Assembly: GCA_049414405.1 (NCBI GenBank)
Contig: JBMSAQ010000015.1
Coordinates: forward strand, 90,001-122,000
Length of the DNA: 32,000 nt
Origin: Candidatus Nanopusillus sp.
Lineage (GTDB): Archaea > Nanobdellota > Nanobdellia > Nanobdellales > Nanobdellaceae
Direction of reading: 5' to 3'
Below are positions 1 through 31,022 of the stretch, piece by piece; position 1 is the stretch's first letter; each line of letters starts with the position of its first letter. The notes beneath the pieces were generated by a model. That model saw nothing but the letters and a program-made list of their open reading frames with translations, was not told where the DNA came from and ran no database searches. Both the position numbers and the translations under genes were made by a program.

Positions 1-148
1 CAATAAAACTAGCAACTTCTAATACTAAATGTGGATTGTGTGTACCAAATATTCTTGCAACAATATATGGAAAATATATTCCTATTAATGATACAATTAT
101 TAAAAATATTGATGCTATTATTGCATCTAATAATTCATCTAGATCCAT
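1..148 (-). CDS. Partial CDS (first 49 codons, continues past the window start): membrane/secreted protein with an N-terminal hydrophobic helix; last visible gene of the pilin-like operon
   Basis: Not in the ORF track because it is partial. Minus-strand ATG at 146-148, 1 nt after the stop (150-152) of the 309-aa ORF. Hand translation MDLDELLDAIIASIFLIIVSLIGIYFPYIVARIFGTHNPHLVLEVASFI stays open to the window edge. Confidence 0.45.
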   Translation of the reverse strand, partial: MDLDELLDAIIASIFLIIVSLIGIYFPYIVARIFGTHNPHLVLEVASFI

Positions 149-149
149 A

Positions 150-1079
150 TTATTTTGGAATAGTTGCTCCTATATATATGTTAATATCTGCTGTTTTTTT
201 ATCTTTATTACTATATATATCCATATATATTGCTGTTGGTGGTAAAGAGCCTGCAAAATACAATATTGGGAAATCTATCCCAAATATATTTTCAAAAATA
301 TTACCAAACGTGGCAGCTTTTATAATCTCACCTACAAGATTACTATAAGATATTTGAGAGTTTCTTGGAAATCCTGATAATATCACACATTTTGATGGAT
401 TATATGGTAAATTTTGACTTTCATAATCTATATTTTGGTTTGGAGCACAATATATTTTATCACCTCCGACATTTGGAGACGTAAATTTACATCCATTATT
501 ATTACATGTTATTGTAGTATCATTTACTATAGTAAGAACCATTGAAGATGTTGAAAAGAAAAGATCTGTTATACTTATAAAAATTTGAAATTTATTAGAT
601 AAATCTTTATTGGAAGAGTATGCTAGCAAACCAGCATCAACATTTAATCCTTGTATTTTTATATTTATTTCATCTACATTTAAAGATCTTTGCTTTATTA
701 ATTTACAATATTCTAATGCTGGCGCAAATATGACAGTCTTTCCATTATCTACGGTAGAAACATTCCAATAGGCTATTTTAACAGATAATGCACCTACAAC
801 TTGATTTGGAGGTAAACAACGATATAATTGTAAGTACCACCCATCTTTATTTGTCAATACAAAAACATAATTGTAATCATAATTATTTATAAATACTCTT
901 CCATAATTTTTGTTATTTTTGTCATTTATACTATCAGCAATTGAATTTAAATATCCAACGTATCTTGCCTCATCTCCCATTGCTATTCCAATAAACACCA
1001 TAATAATATAAAATATTAAAACTGCCAGTACAATTAATATTATTATATCAAAAATTATTCTAAGAAAATTATTCTTCAT
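150..1079 (-). CDS. Pilin-headed predicted extracellular protein, 309 aa, function unknown
   Basis: ORF track. N-terminus MKNNFLRIIFDIIILIVLAVLIFYIIMVFIGIAMG is a short polar head plus a long hydrophobic helix. The remainder is Asn/Ser/Thr-rich with N-x-S/T sequons and 7 Cys. The ATG lies 1 nt after the stop of the preceding mini-ORF. No enzymatic motif recognised. Confidence 0.6.
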   Translation of the reverse strand: MKNNFLRIIFDIIILIVLAVLIFYIIMVFIGIAMGDEARYVGYLNSIADSINDKNNKNYGRVFINNYDYNYVFVLTNKDGWYLQLYRCLPPNQVVGALSVKIAYWNVSTVDNGKTVIFAPALEYCKLIKQRSLNVDEINIKIQGLNVDAGLLAYSSNKDLSNKFQIFISITDLFFSTSSMVLTIVNDTTITCNNNGCKFTSPNVGGDKIYCAPNQNIDYESQNLPYNPSKCVILSGFPRNSQISYSNLVGEIIKAATFGNIFENIFGIDFPILYFAGSLPPTAIYMDIYSNKDKKTADINIYIGATIPK

Positions 1080-1080
1080 A

Positions 1081-1242
1081 TTATCCCAATCCTGATCGAT
1101 TTAGTAAATCGTATCCAACGTTAGTCGCATTCACTTGCATAGAGTTATTTACTATATTATAATAAAATAATATTGCTAAAACAATTATTACCAATGCTAT
1201 TATTAAAAATATTAAAAAGTTTATTGAATTATTAGCCTCCAT
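1081..1242 (-). CDS. Mini-pilin-like protein, 53 aa (below the ORF-track cutoff)
   Basis: Hand translation of the minus strand: MEANNSINFLIFLIIALVIIVLAILFYYNIVNNSMQVNATNVGYDLLNRSGLG. ATG at 1240-1242 overlaps the end of the 61-aa ORF by 11 nt; stop at 1081-1083. Same head + helix + sequon-rich tail (NNS, NAT, NRS) as the other small paralogs. Confidence 0.55.
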   Translation of the reverse strand: MEANNSINFLIFLIIALVIIVLAILFYYNIVNNSMQVNATNVGYDLLNRSGLG

Positions 1243-1417
1243 AGTTATTTGTATTTATACTATTTACAATATTTGTGCCATTTGTTTGGGGTATACTATT
1301 GAATAAATTTACTCCACCTTTGAAATAAAAGTACATAAACATTACTAATAATACTAAAGCAACTATAAATAATATTACTGCTATTAAAAAGGTATTTACC
1401 TCTGTTTTTTTATCCAT
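1232..1417 (-). CDS. Mini-pilin-like protein, 61 aa
   Basis: ORF track. MDKKTEVNTFLIAVILFIVALVLLVMFMYFYF is a charged head plus hydrophobic helix, followed by an Asn/Thr-rich tail (NGT sequon). Overlaps both flanking mini-ORFs. Confidence 0.6.
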   Translation of the reverse strand: MDKKTEVNTFLIAVILFIVALVLLVMFMYFYFKGGVNLFNSIPQTNGTNIVNSINTNNYGG

Positions 1418-1556
1418 TTCCTCCTATTAATTGATATTTAGCAAATATATTTATATTTAGCCCTATTTTTGGCCCTATTATAATAAAAACAAATATTAAT
1501 ATTAATACAATAAATACTAATGCCAAAATTATCTTTAAAAGCTCCCCTGTTTCCAT
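1410..1556 (-). CDS. Mini-pilin-like / single-pass membrane peptide, 48 aa (below the ORF-track cutoff)
   Basis: Hand translation: METGELLKIILALVFIVLILIFVFIIIGPKIGLNINIFAKYQLIGGNG. ATG at 1554-1556; stop at 1410-1412 overlaps the ATG (1415-1417) of the next ORF by 8 nt. A TTTATAAAT TATA-like element lies 22-30 nt upstream. Confidence 0.5.
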   Translation of the reverse strand: METGELLKIILALVFIVLILIFVFIIIGPKIGLNINIFAKYQLIGGNG

Positions 1557-1586
1557 TATAAATCTAAAAACTTTGTAATTTATAAA

Positions 1587-2798
1587 CTAACTTTCGCCTG
1601 AAATTGCTGTTAATACAATTACCCTATTTCCTCCTTCATACGTATATTGTATTATCATACCATTTGGTAATCTCATATTACCTGGAATAATCATAACCCG
1701 ATCTGGTGAAGGATTACCTTCAGTTGAACTTAGTTGTTTAACATTATCACCTTGACCTTGACCTTGATATACTCTAAATGAATTTACCAATAGTTTATTA
1801 TATACATTTGATGTTTGTGGATTTGATAACATTATTTTACTATTTACATTACTTAATACCCGACATGGAATATTGTCATTACTATTCTTTATTACATTGT
1901 TTCCATACATAACTTCCAATGGGATATAATCATAATATCTCATCATTCCCAACATACACAAAACGTCATTTAATGTAACATTATATTTACTATTATAATC
2001 AAACAATATTAATGCATATTCATTATGATTTCTTGCTATAACTACGCTCTGTCCCAATGTTTCTCCGTATGTATAAAATAAATATTTTGCAATTAAATAT
2101 GTTGCATATAAGTTTTGGCATTCTTCTTTTGTTGGGTTACTACAATATCCTTGTTTTTCTATATATTCTACATATGTTTGATTTAAATCTTTAAGCATTC
2201 TTCTTATTTCAGAATTATCTATGTTACTTAAATTTAAAGCTACTACACCTTGTGGAACTAAATAATATAAAATAGGTGCTTGAATTGCATATGCTAAATT
2301 ATTTAAGAAATAAGATACCATATTTAAACCAATTGTTCCTGCCAATAAACCTTTACCCATCGGATTTAAAAAGACTTTTTTATATGTACCTCCAACATGC
2401 GATGCAATTGTTTTTATTGGAGCTCCTCCAGTATTAAGATCTCTAAATAACAAAGTTACTAAGCCAACTTTATCCTTGGCATATCCAGCACTTTTTAAAA
2501 TCTTTATGTTCTGATTATAATTTGTTTTTACTCCAGAAACTACACCAGCAGCAGTTGTAGCAGCAACAACTCCTAATAATACATCATTTGCAATTGTTGC
2601 AGCATTGGATACTCCCTGTGCCACCGGATTTATCATAAAACTTGTACTTCCAGCCAAAGCATATCCAAATTTTGCCTCTGGTCTACCTGCATAACTAAGA
2701 CCTTTTAATACATTAAAGAAAACTATTATTACAAATATTAGTATAATAATTATAACAATAAGCTCTATTACATTATCACTTATAGATTTCATAACCAT
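1587..2798 (-). CDS. Pilin-headed protein, 403 aa, function unknown; first gene of the operon
   Basis: ORF track. N-terminus MVMKSISDNVIELIVIIIILIFVIIVFFNVL, with an alternative start at Met3 giving MKSISDN, closely matching MKNSISID of the 62-aa mini-pilin. A Gly/Ala-rich hydrophobic segment follows, then an Asn-rich domain with 4 Cys. Confidence 0.65.
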   Translation of the reverse strand: MVMKSISDNVIELIVIIIILIFVIIVFFNVLKGLSYAGRPEAKFGYALAGSTSFMINPVAQGVSNAATIANDVLLGVVAATTAAGVVSGVKTNYNQNIKILKSAGYAKDKVGLVTLLFRDLNTGGAPIKTIASHVGGTYKKVFLNPMGKGLLAGTIGLNMVSYFLNNLAYAIQAPILYYLVPQGVVALNLSNIDNSEIRRMLKDLNQTYVEYIEKQGYCSNPTKEECQNLYATYLIAKYLFYTYGETLGQSVVIARNHNEYALILFDYNSKYNVTLNDVLCMLGMMRYYDYIPLEVMYGNNVIKNSNDNIPCRVLSNVNSKIMLSNPQTSNVYNKLLVNSFRVYQGQGQGDNVKQLSSTEGNPSPDRVMIIPGNMRLPNGMIIQYTYEGGNRVIVLTAISGES

Positions 2799-2997
2799 TT
2801 ATAAAAATTTTGAACTTTATTAAATTTTTTACGATAAACTTCCAACAAATAAATTCAAAAAGCTAAAATAAACATAATATCTGTTTTTTACATGTATGGA
2901 TTGTGTACAAAGCTTATAAAATTTATATAAAAAGGTTTATTTATTTAATAAGTATGAAAATACTTATGTTTTTAAAATTTTATTAAAAGTATATTAT

Positions 2998-4032
2998 ATG
3001 CAACTACGCCAGCGTTTAGATGATATTTTATTAGATGGGGTGGGGAAAAGTGTATGGGGTGGTCTTAGCAAAATTAAAGAAGGAGTTAGTAGATCTATAA
3101 GATATTTAGATGAAAAATTAAAAGAAATAGGAAATAAAACTTATGAAAAACTTAGGGAAACCAAAAATAAAATATCAGAATATATGCCAATAATAAAAGA
3201 TTCTGCAATAGCATCATTACCATATACTACGAAAGTCCTAATTTTGGCAGGATCATCTATGAAAAATACATCTAGAGGTCTTGCGGGTAGGGCTGTTGGA
3301 TATTTACTAATAGGTGCTGGTGCTGCTACCCTTGGATTATTTGTATTATCCGGAATACACGGATTACCATCTCCAAACAATGAAAACATACAATATGTGG
3401 GATCTCCAGATGGGTATCAAGGATTTGTACCAAAAGGTGTAATAAATTACGAAGGACAGACAAATCCCAGGGGTGACTTAATATTAAATGATGGAAGAGT
3501 ATTAAATAATGCAGTATGGCATGGTAAATACTCAGATACAATAATCGAGAACAACAATCAAATAGTTAAATTGAATAATTATTTTGTTGGAAAGATCAAT
3601 CCAGTAAATAATCAGCCATTTGAATATCTACAAGATGTTTATGTAATTAAAGGTCAAGTACCAATTAAAGAAATAACAATAAATGGACAAATACATTATG
3701 TAATAGATGCTAATAAAATACATGAAGCAAATGTGGCAGGATTTTATACATATAAAGAGTGGGTAGATGACTTTGTAGCAGCAATGAATACACCAGGAAC
3801 AACAGCAGCAAGATTACCAGGAGATTCTCCTGTATTTAAATGGACAAATACAATAGGGATTGTAGCATATCAAACAAAAGTGTATCAACAATATTATCCA
3901 TATTTAAGTGGAGGGGCTGTATTAATACAACCTAATGGAACTATAATTCCATATGGAATATTCGGTCCTATTATAGGGGTTAATTTATCAAACTTTGGTC
4001 TTCCTAAACAATTATATAATCCTTCTAGTTAA
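2998..4032 (+). CDS. Predicted type II membrane protein, 344 aa, function unknown
   Basis: ORF track. About 95 aa of charged, helical N-terminus, one hydrophobic span (AVGYLLIGAGAATLGLFVLSGI), then about 225 aa of Asn/Gly/Tyr-rich C-terminal domain. Divergent from the pilin-like operon and convergent with the 860-aa gene. T5/T6 runs follow the stop. Confidence 0.65.
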   Translation: MQLRQRLDDILLDGVGKSVWGGLSKIKEGVSRSIRYLDEKLKEIGNKTYEKLRETKNKISEYMPIIKDSAIASLPYTTKVLILAGSSMKNTSRGLAGRAVGYLLIGAGAATLGLFVLSGIHGLPSPNNENIQYVGSPDGYQGFVPKGVINYEGQTNPRGDLILNDGRVLNNAVWHGKYSDTIIENNNQIVKLNNYFVGKINPVNNQPFEYLQDVYVIKGQVPIKEITINGQIHYVIDANKIHEANVAGFYTYKEWVDDFVAAMNTPGTTAARLPGDSPVFKWTNTIGIVAYQTKVYQQYYPYLSGGAVLIQPNGTIIPYGIFGPIIGVNLSNFGLPKQLYNPSS

Positions 4033-4046
4033 TTTTTAACAATTTT

Positions 4047-6629
4047 TTAAGATATACTCACAACATATGGCACTCCGTATGTTACTATTATCCAATTCAG
4101 ATATATAAAACCAGGTCCGTTTCCAGAACCTGCTGAAATAAATAGATAAGGAGTTCCAACATATACATTTATATCATCTTGTAAATGGTATATACTAACA
4201 GATTGCAATTGTGAAAGACTATTGTACCTTTCTTTAAATCCAAATGTTCCATATACAAAATTATTGTCTACATCATTAAAAGTAAATTCGAAATATCTAT
4301 TCAAAGCATTTTGACGATTTGCTGGTTGATTAAACGCCGTATTATATGCATTTATGTATGATTGTACAAATATAGGTTTTTTAGTTGTTGCACTTATATT
4401 TCCAGGTGGTGCTGGTGGTATTGCATATGCATTTTTCCCATTCCAACTATATTGTACAGATGCAAGAGAATAATTAAATATATTTCCATTCATTAAGAAA
4501 AATATATTTATCTTGTTATTATCAGTAACATCGGTCTGGAACCAATTATATAACCAAAATACACCATATTGATAATATTGTTGATTATTTTTTTGATTTG
4601 GTGGCATAAATGGGAAATAGTTTTCTCCTTCATATCCACGTATATTTCCTGTATTATCTTCTAAGAAATAATAATTCAGCTTAGGACAACCCAAAGGACA
4701 TGTAAGGCTATATAAAGTACTCCACCCAGTTCCCGAATAATAATAGTTCCAATATTGATTATTTGCATTTGTATTTGGATTTTTTGTATATTTTGTAGTT
4801 AAAAAATACCCTATAGTATTGTTATATTGCAATATTCCAACATAATAACCTGCGGTATTTCCCGGTCTTGCACCCCCGGGTACCCATCCATATTCATACA
4901 TAAACATTGGAAAATTAAGTGGTAAATATGTTTCTCCCCCAACCCTTATTCCTATATCTCTATTTCCAATAGAGATACAGTCTCCCGCTATTGAACATAT
5001 TCTATTATTAAGATTATAATCATTATAATGATTTACAGTATTTATCTTTAAATTATTATTATCTGCAATATATGATAATACTACTGCATGCGAAACCAAA
5101 GGACGTGAAACCAAAGGAACAGAATCGTCGAGAGGAGGATCTAACCAAGGTATTCCAGAAAAGTATGCAAATGTTTGTAATCCCAATCCATTTTGCGATT
5201 TAGATAATCTATAAAATGTATTTTTTAAAATATCAGACGTAATTAATGCATAAGATCCTTGTTTTGTTCCATTAACCATTAATAATCCTTTAAAAGGTCT
5301 ATCGATTACAATACTTATTCTAGCTGTTCCGTTTAAATAAACGTTTACATTATTATATGGAGGTAATATATTATTATGTTGAAGTAATATATTGTTATTT
5401 TGATAACATGCTTTATATTTACTAGTATCACAATTATCTGAGGGTATCATCTCTACCCAATATACATTATTATCTGGATATGGATAAAAATTTACATATA
5501 TTGGAAATACATTTAACCCATTATCATATATAACTGCAGAAGATGGTTTATTTGGACTTAAAGCTTCTGGAGCCCCACCAATTGTTCCATTAAAGTATGG
5601 TAATAAGTTTTCATCACTAAATCCAACAAATAATGATACAATATTACAACCAAAATTATTACTATATAATGAAGGAACATTTAATAAATTAATGAAGAAA
5701 TAATAATTCCTATTATGTTCTCCAGCATACCATGAAGGTAATGCATAATATTTACCTTTATAATTAAGTATAAACACTACATTGCTTCCAACATGTGGGG
5801 ATCTTTTAATATAATTACTTAGTGGAGGACCAATTATAACCAATATATTTTGAAAATCATCCATAACGTATCCGCCATTATTTGATAAAGGTATAGCCAA
5901 ATATGTTCCATTAATAATTTTTACATTATTTATTGTATAATCATAATATTTAGAATTTGGATATTGATTTTTATCTAATAAAGATATTGCTGGAGTTATA
6001 TTTATATATAAAGGTTCATTTAAATAGAAATTTTGTATATTTTGACTATTACTTGATTTACATAATATACAAAAATATACAAAACCACCTGCCTGATATG
6101 TTACACGATTATTTCCTACAACACTACATTCATATCTATTTCCCCGATATGTATATGTAACACTATTTCCTTCAAAGGTATTATTTGATAATCTAATTAC
6201 AGATTCTATATCAACATTATTTAATGATTCTATACTATAAGATCTTGAACTAATATTTGTTATATTTTCAGGATTTATTCTTAATACATTAACATTATTA
6301 TTACCCCCGCTATAAGTATTTGTAATATTATAATATATATTCCAATTATCTTGATCTACAATAAATGAAGGAACATATTGTATACTAAATCCATTTTGAT
6401 AGTATATACTTACCATAATTGTTGAATTTATAGTGTTCTGATTATTTCTATCTTCTTTATTTGGGACATCTTTATCTTGTATTGAAATATAATATTGAGA
6501 TGGAGTATAAATATTGTAATATTTAAATATTGAAGTTAAAATAAATATAACCCCAGCTAGAATTATAATAAATATTGGAAGATAATATCCTATAAAAAGC
6601 ATAAGACTATCAAAAATTTTCCCCCTCAT
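4047..6629 (-). CDS. Large pilin-headed Asn/Tyr-rich surface protein, 860 aa (candidate adhesin or cell-envelope protein)
   Basis: ORF track. N-terminus MRGKIFDSLMLFIGYYLPIFIIILAGVIFIL. I counted at least a dozen N-x-S/T sequons by eye. Cys residues occur in closely spaced pairs (FCILC, CDTSKYKAC, CSIAGDC, CPLGC). The ATG overlaps the stop of the 62-aa mini-pilin in an ATGA junction. Confidence 0.8.
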   Translation of the reverse strand: MRGKIFDSLMLFIGYYLPIFIIILAGVIFILTSIFKYYNIYTPSQYYISIQDKDVPNKEDRNNQNTINSTIMVSIYYQNGFSIQYVPSFIVDQDNWNIYYNITNTYSGGNNNVNVLRINPENITNISSRSYSIESLNNVDIESVIRLSNNTFEGNSVTYTYRGNRYECSVVGNNRVTYQAGGFVYFCILCKSSNSQNIQNFYLNEPLYINITPAISLLDKNQYPNSKYYDYTINNVKIINGTYLAIPLSNNGGYVMDDFQNILVIIGPPLSNYIKRSPHVGSNVVFILNYKGKYYALPSWYAGEHNRNYYFFINLLNVPSLYSNNFGCNIVSLFVGFSDENLLPYFNGTIGGAPEALSPNKPSSAVIYDNGLNVFPIYVNFYPYPDNNVYWVEMIPSDNCDTSKYKACYQNNNILLQHNNILPPYNNVNVYLNGTARISIVIDRPFKGLLMVNGTKQGSYALITSDILKNTFYRLSKSQNGLGLQTFAYFSGIPWLDPPLDDSVPLVSRPLVSHAVVLSYIADNNNLKINTVNHYNDYNLNNRICSIAGDCISIGNRDIGIRVGGETYLPLNFPMFMYEYGWVPGGARPGNTAGYYVGILQYNNTIGYFLTTKYTKNPNTNANNQYWNYYYSGTGWSTLYSLTCPLGCPKLNYYFLEDNTGNIRGYEGENYFPFMPPNQKNNQQYYQYGVFWLYNWFQTDVTDNNKINIFFLMNGNIFNYSLASVQYSWNGKNAYAIPPAPPGNISATTKKPIFVQSYINAYNTAFNQPANRQNALNRYFEFTFNDVDNNFVYGTFGFKERYNSLSQLQSVSIYHLQDDINVYVGTPYLFISAGSGNGPGFIYLNWIIVTYGVPYVVSIS

Positions 6630-6814
6630 CTTATTAGATCTGGAATTGATTGATTTGTAATATTATTAAAACTATTATTGATGAAATTGAATGATTGATT
6701 TGATGCTGTATTTCCACCCAAAAATATTTTATATCCAAACATAACTGCTAAAACCAATATAACCAATGCAATAATTAAAATAATTACCATATCTATTGAT
6801 ATGCTATTTTTCAT
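6626..6814 (-). CDS. Mini-pilin-like protein, 62 aa
   Basis: ORF track. MKNSISIDMVIILIIALVILVLAVMFGY, then tail GGNTASNQSFNFINNSFNNITNQSIPDLIR with 4 sequons. Translationally coupled to the 860-aa gene by a 4-nt overlap. Confidence 0.65.
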   Translation of the reverse strand: MKNSISIDMVIILIIALVILVLAVMFGYKIFLGGNTASNQSFNFINNSFNNITNQSIPDLIR

Positions 6815-6846: not shown

Positions 6847-7287
6847 TTATTCGAAAACTTTCTTTTTATAATAATACAAAATTATTCCAAGATTAGTAAT
6901 TAATATTCCATCTGCTATAAGACAATATATACATATTGAATTAATTAAAAAGAACATAGTATATAATGAAAATATTACAAATATTATACCAATTGACCTA
7001 TAAAATAAATTATAAATTATTTTCAACATTTTCTTATACAACAACAATATCAAAAATAAATCTACTATAAAATATGCAATAGTATAAACTCCCAAAGATA
7101 TCCCAAATAACTTTGAATATGGACTATTCAATACTTTTTCACAATCAATTAATGTATTATCAACAGAACAAAAATATGGTAATGATTTACTTATCAAAAC
7201 CGTATATTCTAGATATACAAATATAATTATACCTATTATTGAGAATATTGTCAATAAAAATAATCTTTTATCAAATTTTAAGTTCAT
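6847..7287 (-). CDS. Vitamin K epoxide reductase (VKOR) family disulfide oxidoreductase
   Basis: 146 aa with about four hydrophobic spans. Loop cysteine pair and conserved Ser region FCSVDNTLIDCEKVLNSPYSKLFGISLG. A CxxC (CIYC) sits inside the last helix. This is the VKOR/DsbB-like signature layout. Confidence 0.7.
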   Translation of the reverse strand: MNLKFDKRLFLLTIFSIIGIIIFVYLEYTVLISKSLPYFCSVDNTLIDCEKVLNSPYSKLFGISLGVYTIAYFIVDLFLILLLYKKMLKIIYNLFYRSIGIIFVIFSLYTMFFLINSICIYCLIADGILITNLGIILYYYKKKVFE

Positions 7288-9383: not shown

Positions 9384-10058
9384 TTATTTATTTTGAATTA
9401 AAAAAATCGAATGATCAATATGATATGGCTCTAATCTTACTTCTTTTATTATCTTTAATCCGTAATCTTCTAATTCCTTTCTTACTGCCCTAAATATCTC
9501 TTTTGGATCCTTAGATACATCAATTGATCTAGCTTTTACCGCTAAAAACCCATATCCTTTATTCTTTAAATAGTATTCTATATTTTTAATAAATATTTTT
9601 ACCTGATGTGGTTGAGCAACGTCCTGATATATCAAATCAACCTTTGTAACAATATGCAAATATTCCCATGGTTTATCAGCATCTGCTAATATTCCAATAA
9701 TATTTTTTCTATCATATAGTACCGAAACTAAATCCCTTAATATTCTTGAAGAAACATCTATACCAAATATTAATCCATTTTTATCAACTATATCAGAAAT
9801 ATGAGATGCTGTTGTACCGGAAGCAATACCTAAATATAATATTCTATCACCCCTATCAATTGGTACTTCTCCAATATTTTTCTTAATTGCTGCTGCTAAT
9901 TTAGACCTATTTACAATCCATTCTCTATATTCTTCATTATTATATTTAATCAACTTCTCTTCATATAAACTCTTCCCAGGTACTAAATTTTTTGTATATA
10001 ATCTCCCTTTCTCATCAATAAATATATTTTTATTTTCCTTTAGTGGTTTTAATTTCAT
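9384..10058 (-). CDS. flpA: Fibrillarin (C/D box sRNP 2'-O-methyltransferase)
   Basis: EYREWIVNRSKLAAAI, ILYLGIASGTTASHISDIV, DVAQPHQ and KARSIDVS motifs. 4-nt overlap with nop5. Confidence 0.95.
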   Translation of the reverse strand: MKLKPLKENKNIFIDEKGRLYTKNLVPGKSLYEEKLIKYNNEEYREWIVNRSKLAAAIKKNIGEVPIDRGDRILYLGIASGTTASHISDIVDKNGLIFGIDVSSRILRDLVSVLYDRKNIIGILADADKPWEYLHIVTKVDLIYQDVAQPHQVKIFIKNIEYYLKNKGYGFLAVKARSIDVSKDPKEIFRAVRKELEDYGLKIIKEVRLEPYHIDHSIFLIQNK

Positions 10059-11038
10059 TTTTCAGATAATTCTCTAAATCTTTTATCCAATTCTTCCTTC
10101 AATTTATGATATATTATTTTTCCATTCAGATCTGCTTTCACTGCGATAGATATTTTTGATGCTAATGTTCTAGCCATTGCTCCTCTTCTTTTTGGTGGTA
10201 ATCTTTGCAAATATGGATGATTAAATATTACACCATGCTTTGGGGGTTTTATACCCTTAGATAAATGTAAAAATAATGCCTTTTCTGCACCTAAAACCTG
10301 TATTGTTGATGAGGGTAATAATGATAATTCTTTCAATCCACTGGCTAATAATATTAATCTTGCACCAATTTTTGGAGTAGCAATTTCTGATAAATTTGGA
10401 GCAATTTCTTTCATTAATTTTTCAATATAATTTTCTAAATCTTTTCTTAAATCATACAACTCTTTTATCTTTAATGATATTTCATTCATTATTTCTAAAT
10501 CTTCCTTCTTAAATATTTTTCCACCCATTGTTTTGTTGATATTATATTTTTTCATCAATTCTTCCCTATCAGAATTTACAATTGCTCTTATAAATTTTTC
10601 ATGATCTTCAATTTCTTGTGAAATTTCTGGAAGATATAATCCGTACCATTCTCTAAATCTCTCCATGAATAAATTTAGTGTTTTATTCAAATCGTCAAGA
10701 AAACTTATTGCCTGAATTATTATTTCATCCTTACTTATAGAATCTGATATTTGTTCTTTTAATAAGCCAATAAATAACTTATTATCAATTTTCTCTTCTC
10801 CAATTTTTTCCATTACCTTTCTTATCATACTTATATCTTCTGTATATTTATATCCATCAAATCTTTGTCCAATAAAAATATCATTTTCCTTTATATATTT
10901 CTTTACCTTTTCAGGTAATTTATTTTTATATATTTCTTTTAAATCATCTAAATTCAACTCTACATTAATTTTCTGAAAATTTTCTAAATTATCATCAAAT
11001 ATATATAATCCATTATATCTCAACAAAATATAGCTCAT
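10055..11038 (-). CDS. nop5: Nop5 (Nop56/58) C/D box sRNP protein
   Basis: C-terminal NOP domain GAEKALFLHLSKGIKPPKHGVIFNHPYLQ...RGAMARTLASKISIAVKAD. Directly upstream of fibrillarin. Confidence 0.9.
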   Translation of the reverse strand: MSYILLRYNGLYIFDDNLENFQKINVELNLDDLKEIYKNKLPEKVKKYIKENDIFIGQRFDGYKYTEDISMIRKVMEKIGEEKIDNKLFIGLLKEQISDSISKDEIIIQAISFLDDLNKTLNLFMERFREWYGLYLPEISQEIEDHEKFIRAIVNSDREELMKKYNINKTMGGKIFKKEDLEIMNEISLKIKELYDLRKDLENYIEKLMKEIAPNLSEIATPKIGARLILLASGLKELSLLPSSTIQVLGAEKALFLHLSKGIKPPKHGVIFNHPYLQRLPPKRRGAMARTLASKISIAVKADLNGKIIYHKLKEELDKRFRELSEK

Positions 11039-11349
11039 TTTAATATCTTTAACGATATTCTAAATCCTTTTGATGGAATTTGCATATTTATAAAATAATT
11101 TTTGAAAAATCTTTCATCATTCGCAACATCTAAAAATCTTCTATATATTTTTATTTGATATGTTTCATATATCTTTGTTCCTCTCTTTCCTAATGTTCTC
11201 ATAGTTGGTATTCTAATTACCTTTGTTGGTAAATTAACAGGACCTCTCTTTTCAATACCCAATTGTTCAATTATTTTTAACAATTGATTAGTAAACTGGT
11301 TCATTGTTTTTAAATCTGTTCCCCACATTTTAATCCTTATCATTGACAT
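11035..11349 (-). CDS. rps10: 30S ribosomal protein S10 (uS10)
   Basis: IRIKMWGTDLKTMNQFTNQLL...RGPVNLPTKVIRIPTMR...YQIKIYRRFLDV matches the S10 pattern. 4-nt overlap with nop5. Confidence 0.9.
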   Translation of the reverse strand: MSMIRIKMWGTDLKTMNQFTNQLLKIIEQLGIEKRGPVNLPTKVIRIPTMRTLGKRGTKIYETYQIKIYRRFLDVANDERFFKNYFINMQIPSKGFRISLKILK

Positions 11350-11373
11350 AAATTGATAATATGTATTATATTT

Positions 11374-13254
11374 TTAAATGCTTTCTACAGGTTCAATTCT
11401 TAATATATAAAATATTTTATTCAATACTTCTTTCGTTAAATATACTAGGAATAACCTATGTGGATACTTATCTTTATAATTTAATATTGGGACATTCTGG
11501 TAAAATTCATTAAATGATCTAACCAAATCTATTAAATATCTATACAAATGGTTTAATTCTAATGATTTTTCAATATCATAAATTATATCTTTAAATCTAA
11601 ATAGATTAATAATTAATTTCTCTTCATATTTATTTAATTCATTTATTTCAAATTCTTCAGGTATTTTATCAACTTTATTTAATAATGATCTTATCCTTGC
11701 ATATGTATACAAAAAGTATATTACATTTCCTTCTTCTAAATTTAACATTTTATCGATATCGAATAGTATTGTAGTATTTCTATCATATTTTAACATTTCC
11801 AATGATATAAAACTTTTTACTATCCTTTCAGAAATTTCTTTATCTTTAAATTTATCATATGCAATATTATATAATTTCTCATATAATTCATCAACATTTA
11901 TATACAATCCTTTTCTTCCAGACATTTTTATATCTTCATTTATTCCAAATATTTTTGCAGTATTTCTATGTAATCTAACCAACCCATATCCATAATATAT
12001 ATATTTAGATTCTTTATCAATTTCTTCAATTATCCTTTTCACCATTAATTGATTATGCATTTGTTCCATTCCAATTACATTTATTGAAACTTTACATAGT
12101 TCAATTTCTTTTCCCTCATTATTTACTTCATATATATATTCATCATTCGGTTGTTTTATATATTCTTTAAATTTAATATTTGATCTAATTATACCATGTT
12201 TCCACATTGCATATGCAATATCTTTTGCAATATATGTGGTAGTTCCATCTGATCTTACAAGAACCTTTTCTTTATTTGAATATGCTCTATATATATCTTC
12301 CCATCTTGTTAAATCCAGAGAAATTGTACCATTCTTTTTTATCATTTTATTTTCTTCCAATATTTTTAATGCACTATCAAATAATTTATACCTTAATATG
12401 TCGGATTCTCTAATAATTATATTAAAATGTATATTAAATTTCCACAATGTATTTAATTGTTCATATAAAATTTTTTCCGATATTCTTTTAGATAAATAAT
12501 ATACATCATTATTACCTTCTTCAATCATCTTTATAATATTATATTTGTATTTTTCTAATTCTGGAATTATTTCATATAATTTATTAACTATTACATATAT
12601 AAAATCTCCATAATAGTGATCAAATTTCTCAGGAACTTCATATCCATATAAACTTTTCAATAATCTCATTCTTTCCAAAAATATTTCTCTAATTTTTTCA
12701 TCATATTCTTCTTTATATATATTCTCTTTTATTAAAAAATCTTTTATATTGTTTATTACTTTTTCTAAGTTGAAATCTTTTGGTTCTTCAGGTATCTTCA
12801 AATAACATATTCCTAAAATGTTATCACTAACCTGAACTCCTGTATCATCTATATAATTTATTACGTGTATATCATAATTTAATGTTTTAAACAATCTATA
12901 CAGAGAATCTCCAATTATTGAATTTCTTAAATGGCCTATATGTAATGCTTTATTAGGATTTGCTGATGTATGCTCTAAAAATATTCTAACATTCTTTTTT
13001 TCAAAATCAAACAATTTTCTATAATTTTCTAATAATTTTCCCTTATTCAACTTAATATTTAGATATCCGTTTATAAATTTGTAATCTAAAACAAATTCTC
13101 TTATTTTTTCAATTATTTCATTTACTAATATATTTATGTCTTTTCTTTTTTTCATTTCTTTGAACAATTTAATTGCTATATCATAATCTAAATTCTTTGG
13201 GGGTTCAGAAAATTCTATATCATAATCTTTTAATTTTTCTTTTATTATCCACAT
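11374..13254 (-). CDS. argS: Arginine--tRNA ligase
   Basis: EHTSANPNKALHIGHLRNSIIGDSL (HIGH region, ArgRS-specific context) with class I length and layout. I place the start at MWIIKEK (13254). The 23-codon track extension to 13323 would overlap the divergent mini-pilin gene and its TATA-like elements. Confidence 0.9.
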   Translation of the reverse strand: MWIIKEKLKDYDIEFSEPPKNLDYDIAIKLFKEMKKRKDINILVNEIIEKIREFVLDYKFINGYLNIKLNKGKLLENYRKLFDFEKKNVRIFLEHTSANPNKALHIGHLRNSIIGDSLYRLFKTLNYDIHVINYIDDTGVQVSDNILGICYLKIPEEPKDFNLEKVINNIKDFLIKENIYKEEYDEKIREIFLERMRLLKSLYGYEVPEKFDHYYGDFIYVIVNKLYEIIPELEKYKYNIIKMIEEGNNDVYYLSKRISEKILYEQLNTLWKFNIHFNIIIRESDILRYKLFDSALKILEENKMIKKNGTISLDLTRWEDIYRAYSNKEKVLVRSDGTTTYIAKDIAYAMWKHGIIRSNIKFKEYIKQPNDEYIYEVNNEGKEIELCKVSINVIGMEQMHNQLMVKRIIEEIDKESKYIYYGYGLVRLHRNTAKIFGINEDIKMSGRKGLYINVDELYEKLYNIAYDKFKDKEISERIVKSFISLEMLKYDRNTTILFDIDKMLNLEEGNVIYFLYTYARIRSLLNKVDKIPEEFEINELNKYEEKLIINLFRFKDIIYDIEKSLELNHLYRYLIDLVRSFNEFYQNVPILNYKDKYPHRLFLVYLTKEVLNKIFYILRIEPVESI

Positions 13255-18326: not shown

Positions 18327-18416
18327 GGGCCCGTAGCTCAGAGGTGGAGCGCCGGCCTTATAAGGCTACGCTCCTGAGAAAGCCGGAGGTCAGGGGTTCG
18401 AGTCCCCTCGGGCCCA
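18327..18416 (+). tRNA. tRNA-Ile (anticodon UAU) with an 18-nt intron at canonical position 37/38
   Basis: Hand-folded: acceptor GGGCCCG/CGGGCCC, D arm GCTC-AGAGGTG-GAGC, anticodon stem CCGGC/GCCGG, loop CTTATA|intron|A, T arm AGGGG-TTCGAGT-CCCCT, discriminator A. A T5 run follows the 3' end. tRNA call 0.9, isotype call about 0.7. Confidence 0.85.
18363..18380 (+). other. tRNA intron within a canonical bulge-helix-bulge (BHB) motif
   Basis: Central 4-bp helix C57-G78, U58-A77, U59-G76, A60-U75 (last two digits of the coordinates). It is flanked by 3-nt bulges U61-A62-A63 and A79-A80-A81, each cut after its second base. Outer helices are the anticodon stem and G64-G65/C73-C74. Confidence 0.75.
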
Positions 18417-19828: not shown

Positions 19829-20746
19829 TTAGCTAGATACTAAAGGTTGCAATATACTATTAAATAAATTATATGGCAGAGCCCCTGAAAATATAAACAT
19901 TATATATTTATAATCCTCTGTTGTATATACTGAAGGGCTTAATCCATATTGTCTTAATTGATTTAGTACATTATTAACCTGTTGAATTGCTTGGAATGTA
20001 ATTGATGATGTCTTTACAACTACCATAAATGTTGGAGTTCCCCCAATTCCGTATGTGTCCCTATAATATTTTAATTCACTATCTATTTGATTATAGTATT
20101 TTGAACTATTTACACAGGATTCGATTCTATTAACATCCAATCCTAAAGATTGTGCCTTTTTATTAAATTCTCTATATACATCTTGTTGACTTGGTAAAAT
20201 ACTCCAAGACACACCTTGCATTTGATTATGCCAAGCCCAGTTTGCAAGTTTATCCCACGTTTCAAATCCATATAATTTGTATACGCATGTTAAATATTGT
20301 GCTGTTAGATTCGCGTATGGGTGTATCTGATATAGTGGAAAATTGACAAACACCCATGCTATTTTTCCATTATCTATGTAATTTTGTCTAATTTGTGGAA
20401 ATGTTTGTAAGTGAAATAGATTACAATATGGACATTGAAAATCAGAAAATTCATATACAATAACATTTACATTATTTGGATTTCCATATACTGGATCTAT
20501 ATCAGAAATACTTGGCAATGGTGCCTGTGGTAATGTTTGTAAATAAGCTTGTAATTGATTTGAAGGTCCAACAGATGATCCATATATTTTTATATTTGAT
20601 ATTGAATTGGCTATAATGTAAGATCCTATAACTACTGAAATTGCTAACACTATAAATCCAATTATTATTGATTTTTCTACTGTAATATTAAACTTCCGTT
20701 CTTTCTTTTCATTATTTTCTTTATTTTTTTCTTTTTCTATTTCCAT
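19829..20746 (-). CDS. Membrane-anchored DsbA-like thioredoxin-fold oxidoreductase (CPYC)
   Basis: Lys/Glu-rich N-terminus, one TM (IIIGFIVLAISVVIGSYII), then EFSDFQCPYCNLFH and a late GGTPTF (cis-Pro loop-like) motif, typical of DsbA/Thioredoxin_4 proteins. Confidence 0.7.
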   Translation of the reverse strand: MEIEKEKNKENNEKKERKFNITVEKSIIIGFIVLAISVVIGSYIIANSISNIKIYGSSVGPSNQLQAYLQTLPQAPLPSISDIDPVYGNPNNVNVIVYEFSDFQCPYCNLFHLQTFPQIRQNYIDNGKIAWVFVNFPLYQIHPYANLTAQYLTCVYKLYGFETWDKLANWAWHNQMQGVSWSILPSQQDVYREFNKKAQSLGLDVNRIESCVNSSKYYNQIDSELKYYRDTYGIGGTPTFMVVVKTSSITFQAIQQVNNVLNQLRQYGLSPSVYTTEDYKYIMFIFSGALPYNLFNSILQPLVSS

Positions 20747-29043: not shown

Positions 29044-30309
29044 TTACCTGTTTAATAACCATTTCCACAATGGTATTAATTTTATTTCTTTATTATCTTT
29101 AATTACTTTATCTTCTAAATCCCATGTAATAATTTTTAAATCATTACAATTTAATAAATTAGATGCTTTAATTAAAGATCTAATTTCTCTTTTGTCCATT
29201 TCATCTATATTATTTATATAAGAAACTTGAATCAATTCTTTTATTATATTGTTTTCTTTTATTAGAAAATCTACTTCGTGTTGTTGATAATCTTTAAAAT
29301 AGTATATTTCAATTAATGGATTGTTATTAATTAATCTTAACAAACCCAAATAAACTATATTTTCTATTCTTTTTCCTATATCATATTTACCAAACAAATT
29401 TGCAAAAGATGTGTCACATAAATAAACCTTTCTTGGCCATCTTTTTCTTTCAAAAAATTTGTTAGAATATTTTTCTATAAAGAATATAGACATTGTATTT
29501 TGTATTTTATCTAAATATGAAAATATTGTCTTCTTTGTATTTATATTAAATTGATTTTCTATAAATTTTTTTATTCTATTTATGCTTATTTCATTAGAAA
29601 AATTTTGCATTAAATATTCAAAAATTATTTTTGCAACATTAAAGCTTCTAATTTTCCCTCTTTCTATAAAATCTTTATAAAAGATTGTTTCATAATATTC
29701 TTTAATTATCCTTTCTTTATCTTCTATAAAAATTACTTCCGGATATCCTCCAAAGTTTGTATATTCCCTTAAATATTCTTTTATCTTTTCTATTTCGCTT
29801 ATACTCAATATCTCAGAAACTTTCATCTTTGTTTTTAGAAATTCTCTAAAAGAAAATGGTAATAATATATAATATATTGTCCTACCTCTTAATTCAGTTA
29901 ATAATTCTTTTGGTAATAACCTTGAAGACGAACCTGTTAGATATATGTTATATCCTCTATCAATTAGCGTTCTTACCAATTTATTCCAATTTTCTAAATT
30001 TTGTATTTCATCTAAAAATATTGTATTTATTTTTACATTATATCTAGATTCATATAAAGATATTATATTTAAAATTTCTTCTGCTTTAATATTTGAAAAT
30101 TCTATACTCTCAAAATTAATATATACTGAATTATCTTTATTAGATAAATATTTATTTAATAATAAATATGTTTTTCCAGCTCTTCTAGGGCCAACAATGG
30201 ATATAGCCTTGTTCTCTATATTTTTTATATTTAATTCTCTTTCAATATAATTTATTTTTCTCTCCCTTATTCTTTCAAAATATTCTATTATGATCCTTTC
30301 ATCATACAT
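29044..30309 (-). CDS. AAA+ ATPase with C-terminal DUF4143 (PD-(D/E)xK nuclease-like) domain (COG1373 type)
   Basis: Walker A GPRRAGKTYLL, Walker B IFLDEIQ, the characteristic RKVYLCDTSFANLFG segment, and the nuclease-like HEVDFLIKE...ELIQVSY. Confidence 0.8.
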   Translation of the reverse strand: MYDERIIIEYFERIRERKINYIERELNIKNIENKAISIVGPRRAGKTYLLLNKYLSNKDNSVYINFESIEFSNIKAEEILNIISLYESRYNVKINTIFLDEIQNLENWNKLVRTLIDRGYNIYLTGSSSRLLPKELLTELRGRTIYYILLPFSFREFLKTKMKVSEILSISEIEKIKEYLREYTNFGGYPEVIFIEDKERIIKEYYETIFYKDFIERGKIRSFNVAKIIFEYLMQNFSNEISINRIKKFIENQFNINTKKTIFSYLDKIQNTMSIFFIEKYSNKFFERKRWPRKVYLCDTSFANLFGKYDIGKRIENIVYLGLLRLINNNPLIEIYYFKDYQQHEVDFLIKENNIIKELIQVSYINNIDEMDKREIRSLIKASNLLNCNDLKIITWDLEDKVIKDNKEIKLIPLWKWLLNR

Positions 30310-30320
30310 ATAATTACTAT

Positions 30321-30360
30321 TATACCAAAATTTTATAAAAATGGTATAATAATTATACCA
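30321..30360. promoter_or_regulatory. Three TATACCA/TGGTATA half-sites bracketing a TATA-like box upstream of the ATPase gene
   Basis: TATACCA (30321-27), TTTTATAAAAA (about 30330-40, centred about 26 nt from the ATG at 30309), then the perfect palindrome TGGTATAA-TAA-TTATACCA (30342-60). Confidence 0.35.
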
Positions 30361-30397
30361 GAATAGATTATTAAAAAAGATAGAAAGTAATAAATTT

Positions 30398-30502
30398 TTA
30401 TTTATTTAATAACCATAACCCAACAACATTTGATAAACCAGTATCTATTGAATATACTTTTTTGGTGCTTTTTCTTGTTTCTTCAATGATGGATGATGCA
30501 TC
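30398..30502 (-). pseudogene. Decayed C-terminal fragment of a second AAA/DUF4143 ATPase paralog
   Basis: Open for 34 codons with no start: DASSIIEETRKSTKKVYSIDTGLSNVVGLWLLNK*. KKVYSIDTGLSNVVG aligns with RKVYLCDTSFANLFG of the intact neighbour. Confidence 0.45.
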
Positions 30503-30611
30503 TTAACAAAAAATATTAAGAAAGACTCTGCCATATAATTAAAAAATCTTTCTATTGTTAATTTATTTATTTTTAAAAAAATCTTCTAAAGATGAAAAAG
30601 TGGATTATACA

Positions 30612-31022
30612 TCAAAGTTCTGAAATTTTTATATTATATTTTTTAGCTATTTTTTTCAAATCTTCATCATGGGTAATAAATGAACAGTTTAATCTTTTAA
30701 CAATTGACAGTAAAATAAAATCATTTAAATTACTTTTACTTAATTTTTTATTATTTTCCTTTATCATCTTTAAAGCTTCCTTAACATCTTTAATTTTTAT
30801 GCTTTCTATTTCAAACAATTCTAAGTTATTTATTACCCTATAAATAGTATCAACATCATCCGCATATTCTATTAAAACCCCTAGAAATTCGTAAATGACT
30901 ACTTCTGGTAATATAATATCATAACTCGTTAATATGTCTAGACTTTTTTGATGATCTTCATAATCTTCAAATGTAGCCCTAACTAAAACATTTGTATCAA
31001 CAATTATTCTTTCTTTTTCCAT
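30612..31022 (-). CDS. vapC: PIN-domain toxin VapC
   Basis: IIVDTNVLV N-terminus with acidic residues at the expected PIN positions (PEVVIYEF, NDFILL, THDED). Overlaps vapB by 19 nt. Confidence 0.8.
   Translation of the reverse strand: MEKERIIVDTNVLVRATFEDYEDHQKSLDILTSYDIILPEVVIYEFLGVLIEYADDVDTIYRVINNLELFEIESIKIKDVKEALKMIKENNKKLSKSNLNDFILLSIVKRLNCSFITHDEDLKKIAKKYNIKISEL

Follow-up and report, generated by a model that had tools for sequence, protein, structure and literature searches.

A nine-gene operon of the Nanopusillaceae as a candidate type-IV-filament-related surface module

A 32,000-nt stretch of a Candidatus Nanopusillus sp. genome (contig JBMSAQ010000015.1, positions 90,001 to 122,000; hereafter the window) carries at its left edge, on the minus strand, part of an operon of nine genes whose products share a short polar head followed by a hydrophobic helix at the N-terminus. 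The operon is undescribed, and all nine families are annotated as hypothetical only; a literature search found no paper describing it. As judged from sequence searches, it is restricted to the Nanopusillaceae (Nanopusillus, Nanobsidianus, Nanobdella and strain YN1). The operon may encode a Nanopusillaceae-specific module related to type IV filaments, composed of pilin-like subunits and accessory membrane proteins, a reading to which we give about even credence.

Nanoarchaeotes of the family Nanopusillaceae have genomes of about 0.6-0.8 Mb, lack the synthesis of lipids, nucleotides and ATP, and are attached to a crenarchaeal host. Nine orphan families that are conserved in such a heavily reduced genome are a testable candidate for the structure that grips the host, under either of the two leading readings discussed below. 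The nanoarchaeal proteins for attachment and transfer have been called 'elusive' (PMC4935971), and a 2026 preprint on archaeal type 4 filament systems treats the Nanoarchaeota/Nanobdellati only in passing.

Gene content, conservation and selection

The part of the operon that lies in the window consists of the following features:

1587..2798, minus strand: gene 1, 403 aa
1410..1556, minus strand: gene 2, single-pass mini-protein of 48 aa
1232..1417, minus strand: gene 3, single-pass mini-protein of 61 aa, 8-nt overlap with gene 2
1081..1242, minus strand: gene 4, single-pass mini-protein of 53 aa, 11-nt overlap with gene 3
150..1079, minus strand: gene 5, 309 aa
1..148, minus strand: gene 6, first 49 codons of a 369-aa protein, runs off the window edge
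2799..2997, no strand: AT-rich intergenic region of 199 nt, common to the operon and a divergent 344-aa gene; presumed promoter region of the operon

The six open reading frames (ORFs) are separated by spacers of 30, -8, -11, 1 and 1 nt, and a re-check reproduced exactly the coordinates and spacers of a first-pass annotation made from the sequence alone. That annotation had described an operon of six genes. The full set comprises nine, because a near-identical contig (L003) and Joint Genome Institute (JGI) contigs with an identical 309-aa gene continue beyond the window edge, which cuts the operon. In close relatives the nine products measure about 403, 48, 61, 53, 309, 369, 282, 162 and 500 aa; genes 6-9 (369, 282, 162 and 500 aa), past the window edge, are seen in L003 and in all relatives. 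The nine co-directional genes overlap or abut, and their order is constant in 13 GTDB species and also in two metagenomic lineages that are more distant. The start of gene 1 is probably the second ATG, at 2792 (MKS...), as in all orthologs.

Homologs of the 403-aa protein number 113, and every named one belongs to Nanopusillus, Nanobsidianus, a 'Nanopusillaceae archaeon' or strain YN1. When 1.84 billion representative proteins were searched with a gene 1 profile, only 29 clusters were returned; every named one is from the Nanopusillaceae, and none is from N. equitans. The gene 1 homologs thus place the DNA in this family, in line with the nanoarchaeal origin assumed earlier.

The genomic neighborhood is conserved as well. 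In N. acidilobi, Nst1 and YN1, the operon is flanked on the gene 1 side by a VKOR gene, by ORFs of 62 and about 800-870 aa and by a divergent ORF of about 345-410 aa, and beyond gene 9 by TYW3, a 157-aa ORF, primase, FBPase and a ribosomal P protein gene. The contig of the metagenome-assembled genome KM4331-08 begins at gene 1, and only the operon and the genes beyond gene 9 are visible there. Nanobdella aerobiophila MJ1 has the operon genes together with the 62-aa ORF, an ORF of about 800 aa and the 157-aa ORF. The distant contigs L022 and L023 keep the operon in an unchanged chromosomal context. On contig L024, from another distant lineage, a lone gene 1 homolog (10001-11092, 363 aa, starting MKG↓DISK, where the arrow marks the putative cleavage site) lies between NurA and CysRS, and the rest of the operon is missing. 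The window has a GC content of about 25%, the operon has the same GC content as its surroundings, and housekeeping genes for MCM, EF-1alpha, fibrillarin, Nop56/58, ArgRS, IleRS, TBP and a proteasome subunit are found in the window. The operon is a vertically inherited chromosomal locus and not a mobile element, because its synteny is fixed, it has no relatives in IMG/VR and no PHROG matches, and it shows no compositional anomaly.

The mini-ORFs of genes 2, 3 and 4 are present in 13/13 Nanopusillaceae loci examined, with sizes of 42-48, 56-65 and 49-62 aa, and are still detectable in the distant L022 and L023. The ratio of non-synonymous to synonymous substitution rates (dN/dS) of the mini-ORFs is 0.10-0.39 among Nanopusillus/Nanobsidianus genomes (0.11-0.27 for gene 2, 0.26-0.39 for gene 3) and 0.19-0.49 for YN1 versus KM4331-08, where gene 3 reaches 0.49; the range of gene 4 is 0.10-0.37. 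Conservation and purifying selection had been proposed beforehand as a check on these ORFs. Since none of the relatives examined lacks the ORFs of 48, 61 and 53 aa and the selection on them is purifying, they are genuine genes. The first-pass annotation had called two of the genes invisible to its ORF track; the 48- and 53-aa ORFs escape only because of a cut-off of 60 aa, and the calls of JGI and those for Nst1 and YN1 include them. The public calls for N. acidilobi (L004/L013, CP010514) lack the 48-aa and 52-aa ORFs of the operon (11240-11386 and 11554-11712), and the operon genes that are called, Nps_00225-00255, are annotated as 'uncharacterized' without an arCOG.

The large operon proteins have a dN/dS of 0.19-0.68, compared with 0.06-0.14 for neighboring housekeeping genes. 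Gene 5 is the fastest-evolving member (0.54-0.68 among the Nanopusillus/Nanobsidianus genomes). The same fast evolution was reported for 'hypothetical external' proteins with a single N-terminal transmembrane (TM) helix, which carry an excess of non-synonymous single-nucleotide polymorphisms in Nanoarchaeota populations (PMC6142677).

N-terminal heads, ectodomains and neighboring genes

Every operon product in the window begins with a polar head of 2-8 residues followed by one strong hydrophobic helix (Kyte-Doolittle peaks of 2.7-3.9). Across all nine products, the 19-residue Kyte-Doolittle peaks are 2.4-3.9 and start within 3-12 residues of the N-terminus, and an uninterrupted hydrophobic helix of at least about 20 residues follows the putative cleavage site. 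By a rough estimate, such heads occur in 3-4 of about 25 other genes of the window, and chance is a very improbable source of a run of six of them (nine in full). Most heads follow the pattern M-[K/R](1-3)-[G/A/S/T], which gives leaders of 3-5 residues ahead of a hydrophobic helix of 22-30 residues. These stretches have the length of a TM helix and do not show the Sec-type layout of an h-region of about 7-15 residues with a small-x-small site; Sec signal peptides are disfavored because the hydrophobic helices are too long.

The heads taken from aligned orthologs are, with the arrow as above:

Gene 1: MKS↓ISD, MKKG↓ISGE, MKKG↓VSDS, MKRA↓VSDD, MKKA↓STGS, MRKKG↓QEST, MRKA↓EINT, MKRS↓INVP, MKG↓DISK
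Gene 3: KKT↓E, KRS↓[Q/D/E], HKG↓QISTF
Gene 5: M[K/R][S/G]↓, also A, T and V; N in the window (MKN↓N)
Gene 7: MR[A/S]↓LSLKD, MKG↓LSLKD, MRS↓FSLKD, MIRS↓LGID
Gene 9: MKT↓SLAP, ..LRS↓SLAP, MRKRG↓SLAP, MKKS↓QIGP, ..KRS↓DAIS
860-aa protein encoded next to the operon: MRG↓, MKS↓, MKT↓

The earlier description of every product as pilin-headed does not hold throughout. The heads of genes 1, 3, 5, 7 and 9, and in part those of genes 4 and 8, fit a minimal archaeal class III leader; genes 2 and 6 have acidic heads. The class III combination (basic at position -2, small at -1) is present in nearly all orthologs of genes 1, 7 and 9 and in the 860-aa neighbor. It is mostly present in genes 3 (T/S/G) and 5 (S/G, N in the window) and partly in gene 4, and is absent from gene 8 (I/N/F at -1) and from the acidic heads of genes 2 and 6. 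Gene 2 is not class III-like because it has no K/R at position -2, the basic residue there being an archaeal hallmark (PMC3387779).

In six families (genes 1, 3, 5, 7, 9 and the 860-aa protein), the last K/R is separated from the helix by a residue that varies yet stays small. It is S/G/A in gene 1, A/S/G in gene 7, T/S/G in genes 9 and 3, G/S/T in the 860-aa protein and mostly S/G in gene 5, and this toggling between G, A, S and T is seen in orthologs down to about 33% identity. A variable but small residue in front of the helix is expected of a prepilin-peptidase site and not of a plain signal anchor. The head of gene 7, MRA↓LSLKD, fits [K/R][G/A][L][S/T], which we take to be the substrate pattern of the prepilin peptidase PibD. 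Head cleavage would involve very short leaders; according to a passage in PMC10117864 that cites Ng 2009, PibD cleaves leaders as short as 3 residues.

A positive control for the head motif comes from contig L025, which has a distant gene 1 homolog and belongs to a lineage with a GC content of 37%. The contig further carries the gene of a PF01917 archaellin-family protein, to which JGI gives the name FlaF. This FlaF and four relatives start with MRRA↓AFST, MKKS↓AFST, MRG↓AFST, MRS↓AFST and MRS↓ISTI, so genuine archaellin-superfamily proteins of that lineage use the same style of head. The query with this FlaF was aimed at Nanopusillus archaellins and returned five close relatives only.

The individual products differ in what surrounds the shared helix. 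Gene 1 has the head M-[K/R](1-3)-[G/A/S], one N-terminal TM helix and a juxtamembrane motif of high conservation, SY(A/S)GRxxAKFxYAL; it also has long helices rich in Ala, Gly and Thr, and its C-terminal alpha/beta domain contains 4 invariant Cys. Gene 2 has an acidic head (METGELLK; MDNTLLG and MNELLE in orthologs), and its nearest Pfam match, PF24431 DUF7554, is sub-threshold (E=0.0014, below the gathering score). Gene 3 starts with [K/R][T/S/G]↓[Q/E/D], or HKG↓QISTF in Nanobdella, and its tail contains a conserved KGGxNLF motif and an N-x-S/T sequon. Gene 5 starts with M-[K/R]-[S/G/A/T/N], conserves an acidic residue within its helix (IIF[D/E]II) and has a beta domain with 6 invariant Cys; the protein is not detectable in the distant lineages. 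Gene 6 follows an acidic head (MDLDELLD; MEEELLE in orthologs) with an N-terminal TM helix, a second hydrophobic region at about 217-246 and a C-terminal part with 4 Cys, and is probably an accessory membrane component and not a pilin. In gene 8, an invariant QIGFFLS is preceded by I/N/F/S. Genes 1 and 6 could conceivably be polytopic platform proteins; the second hydrophobic segment of each is weak (1.3-1.9), and neither gave a T2SSF-like match.

Genes 3 and 4 and the 62-aa ORF upstream of the operon are paralogs (hhalign 96% for gene 4 and the 62-aa ORF, 78% for genes 3 and 4), and their hidden Markov models (HMMs) cross-hit. Otherwise, an all-against-all hhalign comparison of the operon families revealed similarity of the N-terminal helix only, and the ectodomains are not paralogous. 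In the distant lineages, genes 3 and 4 form one two-helix ORF of 112-118 aa (L022 11326-11682, L023 5544-5888, L025 6598-6936). Each half of the fusion matches both HMMs, and the junction keeps K-R-[A/S] inside a strongly basic loop of about 45 residues; an in-frame internal ATG is found in L023 only.

The ectodomains are rich in Asn and Tyr and low in charge, with 4-8% K+R as opposed to 13-17% in the cytoplasmic proteins of the window. N-x-S/T sequons reach 2.5-7.5 per 100 residues in genes 4, 7, 8 and 9, compared with 0.3-1.0 in cytoplasmic proteins, and the counts of invariant Cys are even (4 in gene 1, 6 in gene 5). Composition and invariant Cys thus bear out the large Cys-containing, Asn-rich ectodomains proposed in the first-pass annotation. 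A VKOR-family disulfide-forming membrane protein is encoded near the operon at a position conserved in relatives, and a membrane-anchored DsbA/thioredoxin-like protein with a CPYC motif (Pfam Thioredoxin_4, 6.8e-18) lies at 19829-20746 on the minus strand of the window. The two suggest an extracytoplasmic disulfide-forming pathway in this nanoarchaeote, and the position of the VKOR gene fits oxidative folding of the Cys-containing ectodomains. The surface of N. acidilobi is glycosylated (PMC4935971). Low charge, Asn/Tyr content, sequons, even Cys numbers, the VKOR/DsbA pair and the glycosylated surface together point to operon proteins that are predicted to be extracytoplasmic, glycosylated and disulfide-bonded.

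None of the nine operon products, nor the neighboring 62-, 860-, 344- and 157-aa proteins, has a match above threshold in Pfam, NCBIfam or PHROGs, which agrees with the earlier statement that no known family could be recognized. Divergent orthologs and N-terminal fragments searched at E<=10 gave only sub-threshold, TM-driven matches, and the gene 1 profile has no match among the sequences of the PDB. Structures were predicted with AlphaFold2 for genes 1 and 5 among the nine products. The gene 5 model has a predicted local distance difference test score (pLDDT) of 88.4 and a predicted template modelling score of 0.84. It consists of a helix at 2-52 followed by an all-beta domain, and the helix extends 20 residues past the membrane segment at a pLDDT of 83-96. 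In its overall architecture, the model is compatible with a pilin-like lollipop layout. The model of gene 1 is of moderate confidence (pLDDT 75.5) and shows helices at 3-35 (TM), 40-104 and 128-178 and a confident alpha/beta domain at 184-403. Modelling and fold search, as proposed in the first-pass annotation, thus yielded the helix-then-beta architecture of gene 5 and no pilin match by Foldseek in the PDB; the gene 5 model returned only noise from BFVD, with TM-scores below 0.2.

A second tight, co-directional cluster (7287-4047, minus strand), which is conserved in relatives, lies near the operon:

6847..7287, minus strand: VKOR-family disulfide-forming membrane protein (PF07884, 5.6e-18), position conserved in relatives
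6626..6814, minus strand: single-pass ORF of 62 aa, paralog of gene 4, 4-nt overlap with the start of the 860-aa gene
4047..6629, minus strand: 860-aa protein with the head MRG↓K (MKS↓D and MKT↓Q in relatives) and one N-terminal TM helix

The VKOR gene is co-directional with the 62-aa ORF and lies 32 nt upstream of it. The pair of 62 and 860 aa mirrors the pair of genes 4 and 5 as a second related combination of a small and a large protein. The ectodomain of the 860-aa protein is Asn/Tyr-rich with 10 Cys, and the protein is possibly part of the same surface system. Its homolog in N. acidilobi is readable as an intact ORF of 847 aa (CP010514 5055-7598), of which the public calls list fragments only. 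A published table assigns arCOG10265 and arCOG10353 to Nps_00210/00215, which by gene order would correspond to these fragments.

Between this cluster and the operon, and divergent from the latter, a 344-aa gene (2998-4032, plus strand) encodes a charged cytoplasmic N-domain of about 95 residues, a TM helix at 99-121 and an ectodomain. It has no family match, and relatives have a highly variable counterpart at the corresponding site (344-413 aa; duplicated in Nst1). On the other side of the operon, after TYW3, a 157-aa N-anchored protein (MDKEKIILN..., L003 7648-8121) is conserved a short way beyond the operon in those operon-bearing loci whose contigs extend to it. With a dN/dS of 0.11-0.16 among the Nanopusillus/Nanobsidianus genomes it is far more constrained than the large operon proteins, and it may be a further component of the system.

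Two further observations concern the remainder of the window. A tRNA of 90 nt (18327-18416, plus strand, Rfam 64 bits), whose anticodon is not named by ARAGORN, probably contains an intron. Near the right end, at 29044-31022 on the minus strand, an AAA_14/DUF4143 ATPase (421 aa) is encoded together with a PIN-domain protein (136 aa); in YN1, two AAA_14/DUF4143 copies occur near the operon locus.

Possible roles of the operon products

As members of a type-IV-filament-related module, genes 1, 5, 7 and 9 would be pilin-like subunits, as would probably genes 3/4 and 8, and genes 2 and 6 would probably be non-pilin partners. The products of genes 1, 5, 7, 9 and 8 and the small 3/4 would be inserted into the membrane through the N-terminal hydrophobic helix, genes 1, 5, 7 and 9 exposing large, glycosylated and disulfide-stabilized ectodomains. 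On the cytoplasmic side, a PibD/FlaK-type peptidase would trim the minimal leader of 3-5 residues, M-[K/R](1-3)-[G/A/S/T]. An ATPase/TadC pair encoded elsewhere could then extract the helices into a short heteromeric filament, a pseudopilus or a bindosome-like stalk. The stalk would display the fast-evolving ectodomains outside the S-layer, where they would bind the crenarchaeal host, and genes 2 and 6, with their acidic heads and the extra hydrophobic helices of gene 6, would act as non-pilin membrane partners.

No secretion ATPase, platform protein or prepilin peptidase is found in the 32-kb window, as had been stated in the first-pass annotation. Stand-alone pilin loci are common in archaea (PMC4858521), and filament machinery is documented elsewhere in the lineage. 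In Nst1 and N. acidilobi, an archaellum is accompanied by additional FlaI paralogs (PMC3655853, PMC6142677), four FlaJ/TadC homologs were reported from a population of Nanoarchaeota single-amplified genomes (PMC6142677), and a census of archaeal type IV pili lists five secretion ATPases for Nst1. Tables in the literature and its supplements name FlaI-type ATPases, FlaH, FlaJ, 'type II secretion protein F' and archaellins for N. acidilobi and Nst1. Several type IV filament ATPases are thus retained by reduced genomes, and the operon is a candidate source of the missing subunits and of determinants of host recognition.

A number of observations weigh against a filament module. No ATPase, TadC or peptidase gene lies within 10 kb of the operon in 17/17 loci (13 species and 4 distant contigs). 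No prepilin peptidase is annotated in the N. acidilobi table, which is not proof of its absence, and none of the operon proteins appears in the proteome of N. acidilobi, a data set that covered only about one third of the proteins. None of the full-length proteins matches a pilin or archaellin family of Pfam (Pilin_N, Arch_flagellin, Class_IIIsignal, TadE/F) at E<=1, and the most canonical N-termini, searched at E<=10, gave only TadF for one N-terminus (E=0.5). Foldseek searches of the gene 1 and gene 5 models against the PDB returned noise with TM-scores below 0.2 and no solved pilin, and in the gene 1 model, of moderate confidence as noted, the helix is broken at residues 36-39. As to the heads, those of genes 2 and 6 are consistently acidic and never basic, gene 8 has I/N/F/S at -1, and gene 5 of the window itself has N at -1 (MKN↓N). 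The proteins at the gene 5 position in distant lineages are unrecognizable and may start with MIRE.. or MTFEELLK... Finally, the two-helix fusion of genes 3 and 4 is a poor fit to two separately processed pilins.

Several of these points would be accommodated by a membrane-anchored envelope complex without type IV machinery, in which the N-terminal helices are uncleaved signal anchors; this is the main rival reading, which we hold to be somewhat less likely. Larger membrane subunits (genes 1 and 6), a two-helix unit (3/4), gene 2 and four ectodomain subunits would build, for instance, a contact-site or docking structure, or a conduit that takes up host lipids and metabolites. The acidic heads of genes 2 and 6, the extra hydrophobic helices in gene 6 and possibly gene 1, and a fusion of genes 3 and 4 that forms a hairpin with a strongly basic loop are consistent with such a complex. 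The same holds for the tight translational coupling, which suggests a fixed stoichiometry, for the missing linkage to an ATPase or TadC in any locus and for the lack of pilin homology by sequence or fold, and the molecules that make up the contact sites of DPANN archaea have yet to be identified (PMC4935971, PMC11329633). An envelope complex offers no explanation, however, for the restriction of the residue after K/R to G/A/S/T in six families, for the match of the heads to those of PF01917 FlaF proteins or for a gene 5 helix that continues 20 residues beyond the membrane into a globular domain. In addition, the lineage has several filament ATPases and few recognized pilin candidates.

A related proposal, which we regard as unlikely, is a new envelope machine without type IV machinery that forms the nanoarchaeal side of the host contact site from nine unique families. 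The pair of 62 and 860 aa and the 344-aa gene may belong to it as well. The small TM module would be duplicated in genes 3 and 4 and antiparallel when fused, and the long Ala/Gly/Thr-rich helices of gene 1 could insert into the host membrane or bridge to it.

A conjugation-like or Ced/Ted-like transfer apparatus, with genes 3-4 as a VirB2-like pilin and genes 1/6 as VirB6-like components, is highly improbable. The 112-118-aa form of genes 3-4 in distant lineages, with two hydrophobic helices and a basic loop, and the occurrence of several tiny TM proteins alongside larger membrane proteins recall such systems. The loop of about 45 residues is far longer than in VirB2-type pilins, though, and the two helices are separate proteins in most genomes. 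No VirB4, HerA or CedB-type ATPase is encoded in or near the operon in any locus, there is no similarity in Pfam or the PDB, and the locus, which is strictly chromosomal, is passed on vertically.

Synteny and selection effectively refute an integrated virus or mobile element, or a set of spurious mini-ORFs: archaeal viruses typically have many small TM proteins that lack homologs, and the sub-threshold Pfam matches are mostly viral membrane proteins, but the flanking TYW3, primase, FBPase and ribosomal P protein genes are constant across deeply diverged genomes wherever contigs reach, there is no integrase, PHROG match, IMG/VR relative or BFVD fold match, the GC content equals that of the surroundings, and the mini-ORFs are under purifying selection.

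Two systems in culture carry the operon, namely N. acidilobi with Acidilobus and Nanobdella aerobiophila with Metallosphaera, and antibodies, cryo-electron tomography and N-terminal proteomics are therefore feasible.

Comparison with known systems

Among known systems, archaeal clusters of type IV pilins and minor pilins (epd of M. maripaludis; the type IV pili of Thermoproteales and Desulfurococcales, PMC4858521) share with the operon a set of presumably co-transcribed proteins that have a short basic leader, a small residue at -1 and a long hydrophobic helix at the N-terminus. They also share the combination of very small and large subunits, fast evolution, and beta-rich, N-glycosylated ectodomains with multiple conserved Cys. 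In contrast to these clusters, the operon has no ATPase, TadC or peptidase in the locus and no pilin match in Pfam, two of its heads are acidic, two of its small members are fused in some lineages, and it is restricted to one family.

Bacterial tip complexes (GspH-I-J-K; FimU-PilVWX-PilY1-PilE; ComGD-GG) likewise consist of 4-6 heterogeneous pilin-like proteins, some of them with non-canonical leaders, which prime the filament and carry a large adhesin. There is no homology between them and the operon proteins, and sizes and folds are unrelated. The leader logic of the operon is archaeal, with K/R at -2 and no conserved Glu5; in gene 7, Asp occurs at +5 and Glu at +8, and in gene 5, Asp occurs at +8.

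The operon proteins do not score against PF01917 and lie outside the archaellum gene set. They nevertheless resemble FlaF/FlaG in the head M-[K/R](1-2)-[G/A/S] plus helix, as in FlaF of the L025 lineage, and in the layout of an N-terminal helix followed by a beta-sandwich ectodomain.

The bindosome differs from the operon in that its cargo consists of recognizable ABC-type binding proteins, whereas the operon ectodomains have no known fold, and the Bas locus carries its own ATPase (BasE) and platform protein (BasF), neither of which is found in the operon. Both systems combine large ectodomain proteins, whose minimal class III leaders are putative in the operon (in the bindosome they go down to 3 residues and are cut by PibD), with small pilin-like proteins, and the bindosome is thought to form a surface assembly and not a long pilus, as would the operon products if they build a short stalk.

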